Both the position numbers and the translations under genes were made by a program. A stretch of DNA of 37,988 nucleotides, taken from IMG/VR virus record IMGVR_UViG_2737471821_000001, positions 1 through 37,988 of that record. One strand, written 5' to 3'. The notes beneath the pieces are model-generated. The model did not search any database and was not told the origin of the DNA. It saw only the letters and a list, made by a program, of their open reading frames with translations. The DNA is from a virus. Lineage: Duplodnaviria; Heunggongvirae; Uroviricota; Caudoviricetes. Positions 5,662-37,979 of this stretch are shown in pieces; within the stretch, counting starts at the first letter, position 1, and each line of letters starts with the position of its first letter.

Positions 5662-6366
5662 ATGACTGAATTAACCAAAGAGCAATTAATCGAAGAAGCC
5701 AAATTAAAAATAGCGATTGCGAAATGCCACTCAAATTCAGGGATGGCGCAGGTAGAGGGCGAGTTATTCAAAATTGCACTGGCATCACTGGAAGCAGAGC
5801 CGGTGGCGTGGAAGGCAACCTTCACGCAAATTAACCATGAATGTAATACGTTCACCCTTATGAATTCTGACAAAGCAGAAATCGAACGGTGGGTGCGACT
5901 GCATAAAGTAGGTGATTTTCGGGCAGAAATAACACCGCTTTACGCAGCGCCGCCAGCGATGGTAGTGCCTGATGAAATGGATTTGCTTACCTGCCATCTC
6001 GACGGTGTAACTGAAACATATGCTGATGGCTGGAACGCCTGCCGTGTCGCCATGCTTCAGGCCGAAAACTTTCGGGAAAGTAAGAATTCGTCAACCAACA
6101 ATTTTCGGGAAATCTCGGAAACGTCAACCAGCTCTCCGGGAACTCCGGCTGGCTGGATAAGCTGTAGTGATGCAGTTCCTGCTGAATATTGCGATGTGAT
6201 TCTTCTCGATGATCTCGGGAATGTATTCCCCGGTTCCTGGGATAAGGTTTTTTGCCCCACTCGTGGCGGGAATAAGATGGCTTTTGTAGACAAAGACGGC
6301 GTCGAAGTAGAGAGCTCAACTCACTGGATGCCGCTACCAGAACCGCCGCAGGAGGTGAATCAATGA
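5662..6366 (+). CDS. prophage protein with C-terminal DUF551-like domain
   Basis: 234-aa ORF. The C-terminal segment (GWISCSD..THWMPLPEPP) resembles the DUF551 domain common in enterobacterial prophages. AGGAGG upstream. Confidence 0.5.
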   Translation: MTELTKEQLIEEAKLKIAIAKCHSNSGMAQVEGELFKIALASLEAEPVAWKATFTQINHECNTFTLMNSDKAEIERWVRLHKVGDFRAEITPLYAAPPAMVVPDEMDLLTCHLDGVTETYADGWNACRVAMLQAENFRESKNSSTNNFREISETSTSSPGTPAGWISCSDAVPAEYCDVILLDDLGNVFPGSWDKVFCPTRGGNKMAFVDKDGVEVESSTHWMPLPEPPQEVNQ

Positions 6367-6446
6367 CCCGGCCTGAGGCATTCACCACGGTAGGAATTGC
6401 GATGGCGGTGGCGCTGGTGGTGTATTCGATTTGCCGCTGGGGATAA
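6363..6446 (+). CDS. small hydrophobic peptide (27 aa), translationally coupled
   Basis: ATGA overlap with the upstream gene. MTRPEAFTTVGIAMAVALVVYSICRWG is a single predicted TM helix. Below the ORF-track cutoff. Confidence 0.25.
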   Translation: MTRPEAFTTVGIAMAVALVVYSICRWG

Positions 6447-6656
6447 AAACGGTTTGCGGGAAAAGGAGAGTTAAGTAGAATTGCTGCGGGTGCTTGAGGC
6501 TATCTGCCTCGGGCATGAACACCAAAGGCAGATAGAGAAAAGCCCCAGTTAACATTACGCGTCCTGCAAGACGCTTAACATTAATCTGAGGCCCAATCTA
6601 TGTCTCACAAATGTAGGTTAGCCTCTTACGTGCCGAAAGGCAAGGAGAAGCAGGCT

Positions 6657-6812
6657 ATGAAGCAGCAAAAGGCGATGTTAATCGCCCTGATCGTCATCTG
6701 TTTAACCGTCATAGTGACGGCACTGGTAACGAGGAAAGACCTCTGCGAGGTACGAATCCGAACCGGCCAGACGGAGGTCGCTGTCTTCACAGCTTACGAA
6801 CCTGAGGAGTAA
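6657..6812 (+). CDS. hok: Hok/Gef-family type I toxin (51 aa)
   Basis: MKQQKAMLIALIVICLTVIVTALVTRKDLCEVRIRTGQTEVAVFTAYEPEE matches the Hok/Gef/RelF family as recalled. AAGGAGAAG RBS. The track ORF starts at an in-frame upstream ATG at 6600. Confidence 0.8.
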   Translation: MKQQKAMLIALIVICLTVIVTALVTRKDLCEVRIRTGQTEVAVFTAYEPEE

Positions 6813-6882
6813 GAGACCAGGCGAGGGAGAAATCCCTCGCCGCCTATGATGTGTCAGGCATCTTCAACGCACCCGCACTTAA

Positions 6883-6911
6883 CCCGCTTCGGCGGGTTTT
6901 TGTTTTTATTT
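6883..6911 (+). terminator. intrinsic terminator downstream of hok
   Basis: CCCGC-TTCG-GCGGG hairpin followed by TTTTTGTTTTTATTTT. Confidence 0.7.
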
Positions 6912-7032
6912 TCAATACGTTTGAAGTTATGGACGATGCCGGAATAGAATCAAAAATACTTAAGTAGCGCGCAGGGAGAAGAGGGATGGACCCCGAACAG
7001 GGGGGTGCTATTTATCTGGAAGGATTCTGTTG

Positions 7033-10001: not shown

Positions 10002-10077
10002 GGCCCTTTAGCTCAGTGGTGAGAGCGAGCGACTCATAATCGCCAGGTCGCTGGTTCAAATCCAGCAAGGGCCACCA
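10002..10077 (+). tRNA. tRNA with CAU anticodon (Ile2/lysidine-type or Met; ileZ-like)
   Basis: Cloverleaf folded by hand: acceptor GGCCCTT/AAGGGCC, D-arm GCTC..GAGC, anticodon loop CTCATAA, T-arm GCTGG-TTCAAAT-CCAGC, encoded CCA. Confidence 0.8.
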
Positions 10078-10079
10078 TT

Positions 10080-10156
10080 CCGCCACTAGCTCATCGGGAT
10101 AGAGCATCAACCTTCTAAGTTGATTGTGCGAGGTTCGAGTCCTCGGTGGCGGACCA
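10080..10156 (+). tRNA. tRNA-Arg (UCU anticodon; argN/argO-like)
   Basis: Acceptor CCGCCAC/GTGGCGG, anticodon loop CTTCTAA, T-arm CGAGG-TTCGAGT-CCTCG, encoded CCA. Starts 3 nt after the previous tRNA. Confidence 0.7.
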
Positions 10157-10676: not shown

Positions 10677-10747
10677 TGCAGGTATCGTATAGTGGTTATT
10701 ACATCAGCCTTAGGTTGGTAATGCCGGTTCGATTCCTGTTCTCCGCA
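10677..10747 (+). pseudogene. degenerate tRNA-like element related to the tRNA-Gly copy at 11461
   Basis: D-arm (ATCGTATAGTGGTTATTAC) and T-loop (GGTTCGATTCC) are conserved, but the anticodon stem cannot pair and the acceptor stem has mismatches. Confidence 0.4.
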
Positions 10748-11460: not shown

Positions 11461-11533
<73 letters not shown>

Positions 11534-34364: not shown

Positions 34365-35498
34365 TTAGAACTGATAAACCAGACCTAAAGCGACAATATC
34401 ATCGGTAGAGATGCCATTGGCAGCGTAGAAGCTGTCATCTTCATCCAACAGGTTGATTTTATAGTCAACGTAGGTGGACATGTTTTTATTGAAATAGTAA
34501 GTCGCGCCAATATCGGCGTATTTAACCAGATCTTTATCATCAACACCTGCCGGGTTGTCTGCACCACCCGCAGCGTGCAGGTCACGGCCTTTAGACATCA
34601 GGAAAGAGACTGCCGGACGCAGACCAAAATCAAACTGGTACTGTGCAGTGACTTCAAAATTCTGGGTTTTGTTTGCCACAGCATAATCGCTGTCGCCAAA
34701 CGGGGTCATATTACGCGTTTCTGAATACATGGTTGCCAGGTAAATATTGTTAGCATCGTATTTTAGCCCAGCAGTCCACGCGTCTGCTTTATCACCACCC
34801 GCCGCAGTATGGTTAACCTGGTCATTGGTGCGGTCAGAAGAGGTGTATGCCGCACCAGCGCTAAAGCCCATGCCTAAATCATATGTTGTGGAAAGACCCC
34901 AGCCGTCACCGTTTTCATGGCGAACATCACGTCCGTTGTTGGTGCCTTCCTGACCATTACTGGCTCCTTCGTTGTTACCTTGATACTGCACCGCGAAGTT
35001 CAGACCATTTACCAGACCGAAGAAATCAGTATTACGATAAGTCGCGACGCCATTGGCTCGACCAGTCATAAAGTTGTCTGCATTGGTATAAGCGTCACCG
35101 CCAAATTCAGGCAGCATATCGGTCCAGCCTTCGATGTCGTACATTACGCCATAATTACGTCCGTAATCGAAAGAACCGTAATCTGCAAATTTCAGCCCGG
35201 CAAATGCCAGACGGGTCCATGACTGGTTTTTTGAAGATTCAGTGTTGTTTGCCTGAATATTGTATTCCCATTGACCGTAGCCAGTGAGTTGATCGTTAAT
35301 TTGGGTTTCGCCTTTAAAACCCAGACGCGCATAGCTCTGGTCGCCATCTTTCGCTGAATTATCAGAAAAATAATGCAGGCCATCAACTTTGCCATACAGA
35401 TCTAATTTGTTGCCGTCTTTATTATAAACTTCGGCTGCATGTGCAGCACCAGCGGCGAGCAGGGCAGGAATTAAAAGTGCCAGTACTTTGCTTTTCAT
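34365..35498 (-). CDS. ompN: outer membrane porin OmpN (OmpC/OmpF family)
   Basis: 377-aa protein with signal peptide [21 protein letters not shown] and C-terminal GLVYQF typical of general porins; sits between uspF and ydbK. Confidence 0.85.
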
Positions 35499-35725
35499 TG
35501 AATAAATCCTTTAGTTATTTTATTTGCCTTTTATCCCCATTTCGGGGAGTGAAAACATCCTAAAGGAGAAGTTCAGTTAGCCGATAAATATCATTTGTTA
35601 CGCCTTAAGTAAAACCTTAATCAAATAATTCCTCTGAAATGATAATAAGTCTGGTGAATGTATCGAAGATAATACATACAAAATAAAAATTATACTTTTA
35701 ATTTGCTATACGTTATTCTGCGCGG

Positions 35726-35836
35726 GTTATATGCCTTTATTGTCACAGATTTTATTTTCTGTTGGGCCATTGCATTGCCACTGATTTTCCAACATATAAA
35801 AAGACAAGCCCGAACAGTCGTCCGGGCTTTTTTTTT
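35726..35836 (+). ncRNA. micC: MicC small regulatory RNA
   Basis: Sequence GTTATATGCCTTTATTGTCACAGATTTTATTTTCTGTTGGGCCATTGCATTGCCACTGATTTTCCAACATATAAAAAGACAAGCCCGAACAGTCGTCCGGGCTTTTTTTTT matches MicC as recalled, ending in its intrinsic terminator; lies in the ompN-ydbK intergenic region. Confidence 0.75.
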
Positions 35837-35864
35837 AGAATTGGATAATCCTTATCCAGAGCAT

Positions 35865-37979
35865 TTAATCGGTGTTGCTTTTTTCCGCTTTTCCGGCCAT
35901 TTGTGCCAGGAAGTCATAGCGTTTTTGCAAATCAGCTGCAGCATCTTTCCATAACTGTTCTGCCACTTCTGGCTGCTGCGAATTCAGCCGACGGAAACGT
36001 TGCTCGTGAAGTAACGTTTCTTCCAGTGCTTCTGACGGCGGGCGTGAATCCAAGGCCAGCGGCAGTTTGCCTTCATCGGCACGACGCGGATCAAAGCGAT
36101 ATAGCGGCCAGAAGCCGGTAGCTGTGAGTTGGCGCATCTGGTCGTGGCTGAGTGCCAGATCGTAACCATGCTCTTCACACGGGCTATAAGCAATGATCAG
36201 CGATGGCCCCGGATACGCTTCCGCTTCCTGAATCGCTTTCACCGTCTGGTTCAGCTGCGCGCCGAGAGAAATCTGCGCCACATAAACATGACCGTACATC
36301 ATCATACTGACGCCAAGATCTTTACGCGCTTTACGTTTGCCGTGCTCGCCAAATTTAGTTACTGCACCCAGCGGTGTCGCTTTCGACGCCTGACCACCGG
36401 TGTTGGAATAGCATTGCGTATCCAGCACCAGAATGTTGACGTTTTCCGTCAAACTCAATACATGATCCAGACCGCCAAAGCCGATATCGTAAGCCCAGCC
36501 ATCACCACCAATCAGCCAGATTGATTTTTCCACCAGTGCATCTGCATCACGTAGCAGTTCATGTGCTTCGGCAACATCGTTGAGTTGCTGGCGTAAAGCT
36601 GCAACCTGTTCACGACGAACCTCTGGCGTGGCGTCTGATTTCAACGCCGTCAGTAATTCCGCCGGGATTTTATCGGCAAATTGATCCAGCAGACGCAGCA
36701 CGCGGACACGGTGTTGATCGACCGTCAGGCGGAAACCAAGGCCAAATTCGGCATTATCTTCAAATAGAGAGTTCGCCCATGCCGGCCCACGACCGTTGGC
36801 ATCGGTGGTATACGGTGTAGAGGGCAGGTTACCGCCATAAATTGAAGAACAGCCAGTGGCGTTAGCGATCAACATCCGGTCGCCATAGAGCTGAGTCAGT
36901 AATTTAATATACGGCGTCTCGCCACAACCGGAGCAAGCACCTGAATATTCAAACAGCGGTGTAATCAGCTGCGATGTACGAATATCAATACGTTCCAGTT
37001 TGCTACGGTCGATTTCTGGCAGGTTGAGGAAGAAATCGTAATTGATTTTCTCTTCTTCGACATGTTCCAGGCGAGACATCATATTGATGGCTTTAATCTC
37101 TGGATTCTGACGGTCTTTCGCCGGGCAAACTTCGACGCACAGGTTACAACCGGTGCAATCTTCCGGTGCCACCTGCAAGACATATTTCTGCCCGCGCATA
37201 TCACGCGATTTCACATCCAGCGAATGCAGGCTGGCAGGGGCGTTTTCCATCGCTTCAGGCGGCACCACTTTTGCGCGAATAGCTGAGTGTGGGCAAGCGG
37301 CAACGCAGTGGTTACATTGGGTACAGAGTTCCTCTTTCAAGATGGGGATCTCTTCGGCGATATTGCGTTTTTCCCAGCGCGTAGTGCCCATCGGCCAGGT
37401 GCCGTCTGGCGGCAGCGCCGAAACGGGGAGGGCGTCACCAAGCCCGGCGAGCATCGCAGCGGTTACGGTTTTCACGAAATCAGGGGCGGCATCGGAAACC
37501 ACTGGCGGTCGATTGGCGCTGTGCGGATTTACCGGTTGCAACGGAACTTCTTCTACGGATTCACGCGCCAGCGCCAGAGCCTGCCAGTTGCGTTCCACCA
37601 GATCCTGGCCTTTGCTACTGTAACTTTTGGCAATCGCACCCTGCAATTCTGCGAGGGCGCTATCGCCAGGCAGAATTTGCGTCAGATGGAAAAAAGCCAT
37701 CTGCATGACGGTATTAATACGGGCCGCCAGGCCACATTCGCGGGCGATTTTCGCCGCGTTAATCACATAGAAGCGCGCTTTTTTCTGGTTTAACACGGCC
37801 TGAACTTCTTGCGGCAAGCGCGACCACACTTCATCTGCGCTGTACGGCGTGTTGAGCAGGAAAATGCCGCCAGGTTTTAAACGCTCAGCCATCTGATATT
37901 TATCGATAAACTGCAACTGGTGGCAGCCAACAAAATCAGCCTGGGAAATGAGATAAGCGGAACGAATCGGCTGTGTGTG
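35865..37979 (-). CDS. ydbK: pyruvate:flavodoxin/ferredoxin oxidoreductase, C-terminal ~700 codons (partial; the N-terminal part lies beyond the window edge)
   Basis: 4Fe-4S ferredoxin motifs (CTQCNHCVAACP, CTGCNLCVEVCP) and a TPP-binding region (GGDGWAYDIGFGGLDHV). The frame is open upstream of the track start to 37979. Confidence 0.85.
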   Translation of the reverse strand, partial: HTQPIRSAYLISQADFVGCHQLQFIDKYQMAERLKPGGIFLLNTPYSADEVWSRLPQEVQAVLNQKKARFYVINAAKIARECGLAARINTVMQMAFFHLTQILPGDSALAELQGAIAKSYSSKGQDLVERNWQALALARESVEEVPLQPVNPHSANRPPVVSDAAPDFVKTVTAAMLAGLGDALPVSALPPDGTWPMGTTRWEKRNIAEEIPILKEELCTQCNHCVAACPHSAIRAKVVPPEAMENAPASLHSLDVKSRDMRGQKYVLQVAPEDCTGCNLCVEVCPAKDRQNPEIKAINMMSRLEHVEEEKINYDFFLNLPEIDRSKLERIDIRTSQLITPLFEYSGACSGCGETPYIKLLTQLYGDRMLIANATGCSSIYGGNLPSTPYTTDANGRGPAWANSLFEDNAEFGLGFRLTVDQHRVRVLRLLDQFADKIPAELLTALKSDATPEVRREQVAALRQQLNDVAEAHELLRDADALVEKSIWLIGGDGWAYDIGFGGLDHVLSLTENVNILVLDTQCYSNTGGQASKATPLGAVTKFGEHGKRKARKDLGVSMMMYGHVYVAQISLGAQLNQTVKAIQEAEAYPGPSLIIAYSPCEEHGYDLALSHDQMRQLTATGFWPLYRFDPRRADEGKLPLALDSRPPSEALEETLLHEQRFRRLNSQQPEVAEQLWKDAAADLQKRYDFLAQMAGKAEKSNTD

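Follow-up and report, generated by a model that had tools for sequence, protein, structure and literature searches.

A probably intact hok/mok/sok type I toxin–antitoxin cassette (hokD/hokW subfamily) in a lambdoid prophage at the Rac site of Escherichia coli

The locus at positions 6447-6911 of the window, i.e. the whole stretch of 37,988 nucleotides of viral DNA analysed here (IMG/VR record IMGVR_UViG_2737471821_000001), is very probably an intact hok/mok/sok type I toxin–antitoxin cassette that belongs to the hokD/hokW subfamily and forms a moron in a lambdoid E. coli prophage at the Rac site. All regulatory elements of the hok/sok family are present, ordered and conserved across 25 loci, from Escherichia to Erwinia: the -10 box and transcription start, tac, the metastable hairpin, ucb, mok with its Shine-Dalgarno sequence (SD), the dcb/target hairpin, the 3' protective hairpin, fbi and the terminator. 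The element is ordinary in kind; both the kind and essentially the same sequence are already known, common, annotated and studied.

The related loci gathered number 61, with one genome per species; the alignment, which runs from the transcription start as far as fbi, comprises 25 distinct full-length loci (Escherichia, Shigella, Kluyvera, Pseudocitrobacter, Pantoea and Erwinia). The elements are defined according to Le Rhun et al. 2022 (PMC9841398). In that scheme, the full-length mRNA is closed by the tac/fbi pairing, with ucb acting as the anti-SD of mok; 3' trimming leads to tac/ucb pairing and to pairing of the mok SD (SDmok) with dcb; and the metastable hairpin sequesters tac while transcription runs. 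The consensus fold of the 25 loci, including tac/fbi, ucb/SDmok and the 3' hairpin, comprises 83 predicted pairs, 20 of which exhibit two-sided compensatory changes. To note, tac, fbi, ucb, SDmok and dcb are invariant among these loci, and thus display conservation but almost no two-sided covariation.

The toxin gene hok (6657-6812, plus strand) appears in the ORF list of the window as a 51-codon ORF. Its product is matched by the Pfam family PF01848 (Hok/Gef) with an E value of 1.2e-23 and 82.9 bits (cutoff 22) and is identical over all 51 residues to HokD/RelF of E. coli K-12, which bears out the Hok/Gef assignment made by eye in the preliminary description; PGAP names the gene hokD. The NCBIfam Hok models stay below their curated cutoffs on this product (48.5 vs 73 bits for the PRK09738 subfamily, 40.2 vs 89 for the HokA equivalog). 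By these scores the protein belongs neither to HokA nor to the PRK09738 subfamily, its membership of the Hok family, backed by Pfam, being unaffected. The hok AUG is preceded at a distance of 9 nt by a GGAG that reads as its SD (6644-6647, plus strand), AAGGAG being conserved in the homologues.

At Tyr47, the coding sequence harbors a TACG motif (6795-6798, plus strand), read from the sequence and from the homologues as a candidate TadA A-to-I editing site (Tyr to Cys). The codon at this position is TAC in 22 of the 25 homologues and TGC in the other three, and a covarying 3-bp stem flanks the motif in their consensus fold. A-to-I editing of hokD has been reported (PMC5630033). According to a 2025 preprint, 42 of 45 Hok homologues proved toxic in its assay; HokD figures there among the previously characterised controls and is absent from the three listed as non-toxic. 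A 27-aa hydrophobic ORF located just upstream (6363-6446) was considered as an extra small membrane protein and rejected: it is frameshifted in prophage Sp5 and missing upstream of the other homologues.

A TAnnnT motif stands exactly 6 nt before GGGTGC in 31 of 31 distinct homologue upstream regions. Since it is kept at a fixed distance in otherwise unrelated flanks, it supports a transcription start near 6488, and conservation designates TAGAAT (6476-6481, plus strand), 6 nt 5' of that start, as the -10 box of the hok promoter. The putative -35 box, TTGCGG (6454-6459, plus strand, 16-nt spacer), suggested by the sequence only, is weak: it scores 3/6 against the consensus and is unconserved between homologue groups. 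A sigma-70 scan flagged neither the hok nor the Sok promoter, both falling under its 9/12 threshold; their match to the consensus is poor, 7/12 in the case of Sok.

The full-length hok mRNA (6488-6905, plus strand) would be about 415 nt long, with a 5' end placed at position 1 of the Rfam model and a 3' end in the T run past the terminator. This 418-nt stretch has a minimum free energy (MFE) of -172 kcal/mol (z-score -8.3), and none of 100 shuffles folds as well. The covariance-model search advised in the preliminary description returns, in an Rfam scan of the whole window, one match of RF01794 (“sok”), at 6488-6662 on the plus strand, covering the full model (1-157) with 117.7 bits and an E value of 2e-26 (gathering score 59). 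An R1-type plasmid hok/sok locus (L066) scores 87.2 bits with the same model. In both loci, the “sok” model matches the strand of the hok mRNA and ends at the hok AUG; the match therefore documents the leader and lends Sok indirect support only. This leader extends over 169 nt, from the start at 6488 to the hok AUG at 6657, and is shorter than the ~200 bp first proposed, 6447-6487 being promoter; the fold-back structures proposed with it are upheld.

The leader inverted repeat picked out at first sight, AGGCTATCTGCCT at 6497-6509 and AGGCAGATAG at 6526-6535, indeed possesses a perfect 10-bp core (6500-6509/6526-6535) with an imperfect extension (6489-6509/6526-6546). The core corresponds to the long 5' hairpin (6500-6535, plus strand), retrieved by Rfam, by the repeat search and by the consensus fold, with compensatory changes at two pairs (AU/UA/GC and CG/UA). 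The translational activator element tac, GGGUGCUUGAGG (6488-6499, plus strand), is invariant in the 25 loci and has several predicted partners: fbi in the MFE structure and the consensus fold, ucb in the Rfam structure, i.e. the truncated form, and a segment at 6506-6516 (plus strand) that pairs with 6490-6500 in the metastable co-transcriptional hairpin. The latter is backed by folding, as it is the MFE state of the 3'-truncated RNA, and by conservation: 99.6% of the cells are paired across the 25 loci, vs 32-43% when the pairing is slid, and 8 of its 11 pairs vary on the non-tac side only, with pairing kept. The anti-SD box ucb (6540-6547, plus strand), defined by the consensus fold, faces the mok SD in the full-length mRNA and tac in the truncated one. 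In the former, 6542-6547 pairs with 6587-6592, with a compensatory change at one pair (16 loci with AU, 9 with GC).

The SD of mok, GAGG (6588-6591, plus strand), is located 8 nt 5' of the mok AUG, is invariant in the 25 loci and is predicted to be sequestered by ucb. It precedes a leader ORF of 70 codons, mok (6600-6812, plus strand, from the ORF list), in frame with hok; the preliminary description had overlooked this ORF as well as fbi. Since mok is in frame here, Mok would be, as read from the sequence, HokD with an N-terminal extension. A leader ORF begins at the aligned mok AUG in 24 of the 25 loci, in a frame relative to hok that varies (0, +1 or +2): frame +1 yields a long overlapping ORF, and frame +2 a 19-codon ORF stopping at the hok start. 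This pattern fits a role of mok in which translation through the region, rather than the peptide, is conserved, and fits translational coupling with hok.

In the activated mRNA, the Rfam structure places the Sok-target hairpin at 6588-6625 (plus strand). It assembles the SDmok/dcb helix (6588-6592 with 6621-6625), an upper stem (6595-6603 with 6611-6619), in which an AU/CG compensation occurs among the 25 loci, and a CUCACAA loop (6604-6610). The loop opens with CUCA, fitting YUNR, a motif presumed to play its part in this target loop. A long-range helix links UCUUAC (6624-6629) to GUAAGA (6809-6814, plus strand), inside which lies the stop codon; in the consensus fold it is 100% paired and invariant across the 25 loci.

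The 3' region comprises the two hairpins announced in the preliminary description, with fbi in between. The first (6820-6841, plus strand) is a perfect 9-bp stem (6820-6828/6833-6841) with compensatory changes at three pairs; by analogy with R1 (PMC9841398), it is presumed to block 3' exonucleolytic trimming and would thus define the end of the truncated mRNA. The second, as foreseen, is the intrinsic terminator of the hok mRNA (6881-6908, plus strand), retrieved by a terminator search: a 7-bp stem with a TTCG loop (6881-6898), followed by the T run TTTGTTTTT. The fold-back inhibitory element fbi, CUUCAACGCACCC (6862-6874, plus strand), is identified by the MFE structure and the consensus fold. 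The first 12 bases of the mRNA pair with it, forming in the MFE structure 12 bp with one bulged C. This tac/fbi helix is 99% paired in the 25 loci despite the divergence of the 3' UTR around fbi, and is devoid of two-sided covariation because tac is invariant.

The alternative, truncated form is likewise conserved in the 25 loci: the tac/ucb helix is 99% paired and SDmok/dcb 100% paired. Its helices together (tac/ucb, 5' hairpin, SDmok/dcb and upper target stem) have 88.9% of their cells paired, vs 35-55% with slides of 1-3 columns. The MFE structure of the 3'-truncated mRNA (6488-6860) does not contain the tac/ucb stem, ucb remaining paired with the mok SD and tac with its partner in the metastable hairpin. 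The switch between both forms is hence argued from conservation and homology, not from energies.

Opposite the mok start, the sequence features indicate a Sok gene with its own promoter and terminator hairpin. The Sok antisense RNA (6538-6608, minus strand), 71 nt long, is positioned by alignment with the sokW misc_RNA of AP000422.1. Its predicted fold, with -29.2 kcal/mol and a z-score of -5.3, leaves 14 nt at the 5' end single-stranded, followed by a long hairpin and a terminal UUUU; this 5' tail is complementary to 6595-6608, a segment covering the mok AUG together with the 5' half of the CUCACAA loop. The -10 box TAACCT (6615-6620, minus strand) and the -35 box TTGCCT (6638-6643, minus strand, 17-nt spacer), the latter read from the sequence, are both identical in sokW; the homologues carry TTGCCT or TTGACC at the -35 position. 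In the case of sokW, primer YO-421 replaces this same -10 hexamer, and the mutant has no antitoxin activity (PMC8621323). An antisense RNA on the minus strand had been anticipated at roughly 6560-6660: the strand holds, both by homology to sokW and by strand bias, but the span does not, as it takes in the promoter and the 5' two thirds of Sok and misses its terminator end.

The strand bias is marked. Across the 25 loci, 460 of the 506 cells of the Sok hairpin are paired on the minus strand (91%), vs 349 on the plus strand (69%), because at several positions a plus-strand C-A mismatch reads as a G-U pair on the minus strand; 6545/6589 is C-A on the plus strand in 25/25 loci. Conversely, every helix of the hok mRNA pairs at least as well on the plus strand, the metastable hairpin reaching 100% on plus vs 73% on minus. 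This comparison indicates that selection acts on a minus-strand RNA at the Sok hairpin.

The position of the cassette in the prophage agrees with the nin-like region first suggested: the replication genes flank it on one side and DUF1367/YbcO on the other, a position equivalent to that of lambda nin. Upstream are found repressor-like, Cro-like, ydaT, ydaV-like ATPase, DUF1627, DUF977 and DUF551 genes; downstream are DUF1367, YbcO and a DUF1133 gene with a Phage_antitermQ match (28.4 bits vs a cutoff of 26), then tRNAs and lysis genes. The distance from the hok locus to the Q-antiterminator-like gene downstream of it is about 1.3 kb. Chromosomal DNA forms the right end of the window, with a porin gene, MicC and a pyruvate-flavodoxin oxidoreductase gene, which fits a prophage at the Rac site. 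The best whole-window matches are E. coli VG48B2, with 100% across 89% of the query, and three strains at 99.9%, RM13745, RM13752 and RM11911; with RM11911 the identity is complete up to ~10400. A MicC inside a phage baseplate gene, as suggested when the annotation of RM11911 is applied to the whole window, was considered and discarded, the identity with that genome ending at ~10400 and MicC being here in its normal chromosomal setting between the porin and oxidoreductase genes.

Of 5426 complete E. coli genomes, 4726 carry matches to the 465-bp locus, annotated hokD. A genome has a median of 2 such places and at most 10, and in four genomes the match is 100%. It also occurs in 110 phage records, including Stx phages, phage Rac and P1-like phage-plasmids, under the names hok/mok, MokW, “host killer protein” or RelF. 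The 2025 preprint catalogues 44,248 Hok homologues and describes their enrichment in prophages.

A mechanism can be proposed for the cassette, in which we infer the transcript ends, the 3' trimming and refolding, and the biological role in the prophage, while toxicity, Sok function and its promoter, the involvement of RNase III and Hfq, and activation on induction would be as in the 94%-identical hokW-sokW. As conservation suggests, a weak constitutive promoter (-10 at 6476-6481) would yield a stable mRNA of about 415 nt from near 6488, the nascent 5' tac being kept in the metastable hairpin, whose conservation is described above. In the finished mRNA, tac/fbi (6862-6874) and ucb over the mok ribosome-binding site would, according to the predicted fold and its conservation, prevent both translation and Sok binding. 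By homology to plasmid R1, slow 3' trimming would remove the terminator and fbi and halt at 6820-6841. Then, again as in R1, tac would switch to ucb and the mok SD to the target hairpin, a step that energy minimisation alone does not reproduce.

The short-lived 71-nt Sok would bind the target loop and the mok start via its 5' tail, thereby blocking mok and hence the coupled translation of hok, and would trigger RNase III cleavage, as established experimentally for the 94%-identical sokW. Once Sok is no longer replenished, possibly upon prophage induction, transcription arrest or loss of the element, Mok and Hok would be translated and HokD would depolarise the inner membrane. In Sp5, Hok release advances lysis and doubles phage release, and it may play the same role here. 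TadA editing of Tyr47 to Cys, reported for the K-12 hokD mRNA with the same coding sequence, probably tunes toxicity.

A more specific proposal, tentative and rather doubtful, is that the Sok 5' tail and target loop (6595-6610), with the MSHK start of mok, form a separate specificity class, selected to differ from co-resident copies, within a hokW-like, induction-coupled lysis accelerator. The Sok of a given prophage would then act on the hok of that prophage only. Among otherwise near-identical loci, the leader varies most in two parts, one of which is 6595-6610, and four copies residing in one E. coli genome (L003, L009, L012 and L032) all differ in that stretch. Against strict insulation stand the stretch ATGCTGAACACATGTAG, common to hokW and hokC, and the general freedom of loops to vary.

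The cassette might also be intact but physiologically silent, transcribed and fully repressed, Hok never being released naturally: a selfish passenger with no role in the prophage cycle. Its very wide spread, with a median of two and up to ten copies per genome, fits such a passenger. According to the 2025 preprint, which summarises Pedersen and Gerdes 1999, chromosomal hokA, hokB and hokC have been reported unable to mediate post-segregational killing, so that sequence integrity is no proof of activity. The 94%-identical hokW-sokW of Sp5 is nevertheless switched on by mitomycin C and influences both the timing of lysis and the phage yield, and the retention of all regulatory elements across genera argues for continued selection on regulated expression. 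Silence is thus unlikely.

An abortive-infection or phage-exclusion module, in which an infecting phage would shut off host transcription, deplete Sok and release Hok to the benefit of the lysogen, is considerably less probable still. Exclusion of T4 by hok/sok, reportedly observed by Pecota and Wood in 1996, counts in its favor; the 2025 preprint found hok not to be enriched near defence systems, which counts against it. Such a role would not exclude one linked to induction. Finally, a decayed orphan hok, i.e. a toxin ORF with no functional mok, Sok or fold-back control, named in the preliminary description as the refuting alternative, is made conceivable by PGAP marking only the hokD CDS, neither mok nor Sok, and by the K-12 gene with the identical protein being such a remnant, but can be dismissed with near certainty, as the window keeps the 155 nt missing in K-12, with -10, tac, ucb, SDmok, the mok AUG and all of Sok, and these elements all match the family model and the homologues.

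The intact, regulated cassette being retained as the preferred reading, its importance is small beyond correct annotation. RefSeq marks the hokD CDS only, while the window carries the complete hok, mok and Sok module and the reference hokD of K-12 is truncated; the added value lies in the element map, the corrected Sok coordinates and the intact counterpart of K-12 hokD. A working copy could affect lysis timing and phage yield on induction, as shown for hokW of Sp5, and the region could be hard to clone without the antisense promoter.

Among known systems, the closest is hokW-sokW-mokW of the Stx2 prophage Sp5 (VT2-Sakai), also found in phage 933W, with 93.8% DNA identity over 6447-6884. Both loci possess a 70-aa in-frame mok, a 51-aa Hok and a 71-nt Sok. 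The Sok promoter (TTGCCT-17-TAACCT) and the Sok hairpin are identical, as are tac, ucb, SDmok and dcb; in fbi a single base, 6863, is different, forming a G-U pair here vs a G-C pair in Sp5. The differences include five positions in the 14-nt complement of the Sok 5' tail, four of them in a row at the target loop (6603-6606), the mok start (MSHK here, MLNT in Sp5) and the Hok C-terminus (FTAYEPEE here, FVDYESEK in HokW). Homology stops just past fbi, the terminators being unrelated, and the cassette is located near the right prophage end in Sp5 and upstream of the Q-like gene here. This different place and the end of homology after fbi suggest that the cassette behaves as a mobile moron.

The Sp5 locus has been characterised experimentally by Takada et al. 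2021 (PMC8621323). HokW is toxic and is neutralised by sokW expressed from its own promoter; mutation of the sokW -10 box abolishes protection, RNase III and Hfq contribute, and both the hokW and sokW RNAs are detected by Northern blot (PMC8621323). For this pair, repression of hokW by an unstable sokW and a stable hokW mRNA with 3' processing have been demonstrated (PMC8621323). Upon mitomycin C treatment, sokW is lost and HokW appears in the inner membrane, and in a hokW-sokW deletion, growth arrest is delayed and phage release halved (PMC8621323).

The hokD gene (relF) of E. coli K-12, which follows relBE in the cryptic prophage Qin, is nearly identical in DNA sequence from 6643 through the terminator, including fbi, and its terminator is identical to that of the window. 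In contrast, everything upstream of ~6643 (the hok SD region) is absent: the hok promoter, tac, ucb, SDmok, the mok start, Sok and the Sok -10 box, the place of this missing 5' part being occupied by relE. From this sequence comparison, K-12 hokD is a 5'-truncated remnant, of which the copy in the window is the intact form. Five of the fetched loci carry a similar 5' truncation.

E. coli hokC (gef)/mokC/sokC shares the same architecture, with about 74% DNA identity, an in-frame mok of 69 aa and invariant tac and fbi. It differs by a Hok of 50 aa and by lacking a 16-18-nt palindromic insertion, GCGTCCTGCAAGACGC (6559-6574), which lengthens the Sok hairpin in the hokD/hokW clade; a K-12-type hokC copy (L021) has lost fbi. 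The R1-type hok/sok locus (parB; L066), of plasmid R1 and its IncF relatives, is likewise matched by RF01794 on the strand of the hok mRNA and has its elements in the same order: tac (GGCGCUUGAGG), the 5' hairpin, ucb, SDmok, the target hairpin, CUUACC/GGUAAG, the 3' hairpin and fbi (GAAGCGCC), with TTGCGC/TATCCT as Sok promoter. The Sok of R1 is shorter, at 64 nt. Its mok, as read from L066, is out of frame with hok, unlike that of the window. The Hok of R1 is about 44% identical, a value given for HokW (PMC8621323), and R1 hok/sok, being plasmid-borne, acts in post-segregational killing.

RF01794, which Rfam lists under the name "sok antitoxin", was found by Rfam search on the hok-mRNA strand of the window, from 6488 to 6662 (+), the match ending at the hok AUG. 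On the R1-type plasmid locus (L066), it likewise matches the hok-mRNA strand (232-403, +) and ends at the hok AUG. This family models the hok leader and not the antisense Sok RNA itself.

The antisense Sok RNA maps by homology to 6608..6538 (-). In the hokD/hokW clade, an inserted palindrome of 16-18 nt (GCGTCCTGCAAGACGC, 6559-6574) makes the Sok hairpin longer than in hokC, R1 and the Rfam consensus. In one homologous locus, L037, a compensatory change from G-C to A-U is found inside this insertion. Among the 12 closest loci, most of the leader is nearly invariant, and variability is concentrated in two parts: the 5' hairpin loop (6512-6527) and the segment 6594-6615, which comprises mok codons 1-6 and the complement of the Sok 5' tail. 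Four copies that share one genome (L003, L009, L012 and L032) all differ within the latter segment. In an alignment of 25 distinct full-length hok loci (region matching window 6600-6659), the mok leader ORF also varies in its frame relative to hok: mok is found in frame, in +1 with a long overlap, or in +2 as a 19-codon ORF terminating at the hok start. In locus L019 of this alignment, ATA replaces ATG at the aligned mok start.

Within the toxin gene, the Tyr47 codon TAC is followed by G and forms a TadA editing motif, TACG, at 6795-6798. Editing at the corresponding Tyr has been reported for the K-12 hokD mRNA (PMC5630033), and Tyr47 of the window aligns with the hard-coded Cys of HokB. The codon is TAC in 22 of the 25 homologues and TGC in the other three (L046, L048 and L059). 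The 3-bp stem flanking the motif covaries, with AU in 12 loci and GC in 9.

As to the surroundings of the cassette, region 5662-6366 is a single open ORF of 234 amino acids in the window, with a DUF551 domain at its C-terminus; PGAP annotates the identical sequence of E. coli RM11911 as two pseudogene fragments and a short DUF551 CDS. tRNA genes are located 3' of the Q-like gene, within 10002-10156 and 11461-11533: CAT (Met according to ARAGORN, Ile according to PGAP), Arg-TCT and Gly-TCC. A fourth match, at 10678-10747, is weak (Rfam, 31.8 bits) and is not called by ARAGORN. In the chromosomal flank (34365-37916), the MicC sRNA (35723-35843, 125 bits) lies between a porin gene on the minus strand and a pyruvate-flavodoxin oxidoreductase gene, consistent with a Rac-site prophage ending left of ~34300.

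Near-identical copies of this E. coli cassette occur in assemblies (L008, L011, L039, L050 and L057) labelled Veillonella parvula (a MAG), Xanthomonas pisi, Acinetobacter idrijaensis, a Haemophilus MAG and another MAG, as well as in PP818812.1, labelled "Actinobacillus phage". Several of these copies sit on very short contigs, and contamination or mis-binning likely accounts for the labels.

Despite the variability of the mok start/Sok-tail stretch, hokC and hokW of the Stx2 prophage Sp5 have ATGCTGAACACATGTAG in common there. Homology between the window and Sp5 hokW (L002) stops directly after fbi (window 6875-6915 versus L002 1928-1990). The terminator AACCCGCTTCGGCGGGTT is shared by the window, K-12 hokD and several other loci, whereas the 3' ends beyond fbi in Sp5, L009 and L016-L018 are unrelated to it, indicating that the 3' boundary of the cassette is modular. 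K-12 hokD, located 3' of relBE in the Qin prophage (L065 1020-1400, -), encodes a protein identical to HokD of the window, but the DNA is common only from ~6643 onward; the K-12 copy is therefore devoid of promoter, tac, ucb, mok start and Sok, a truncation point shared with L013, L014, L015, L052 and L056.
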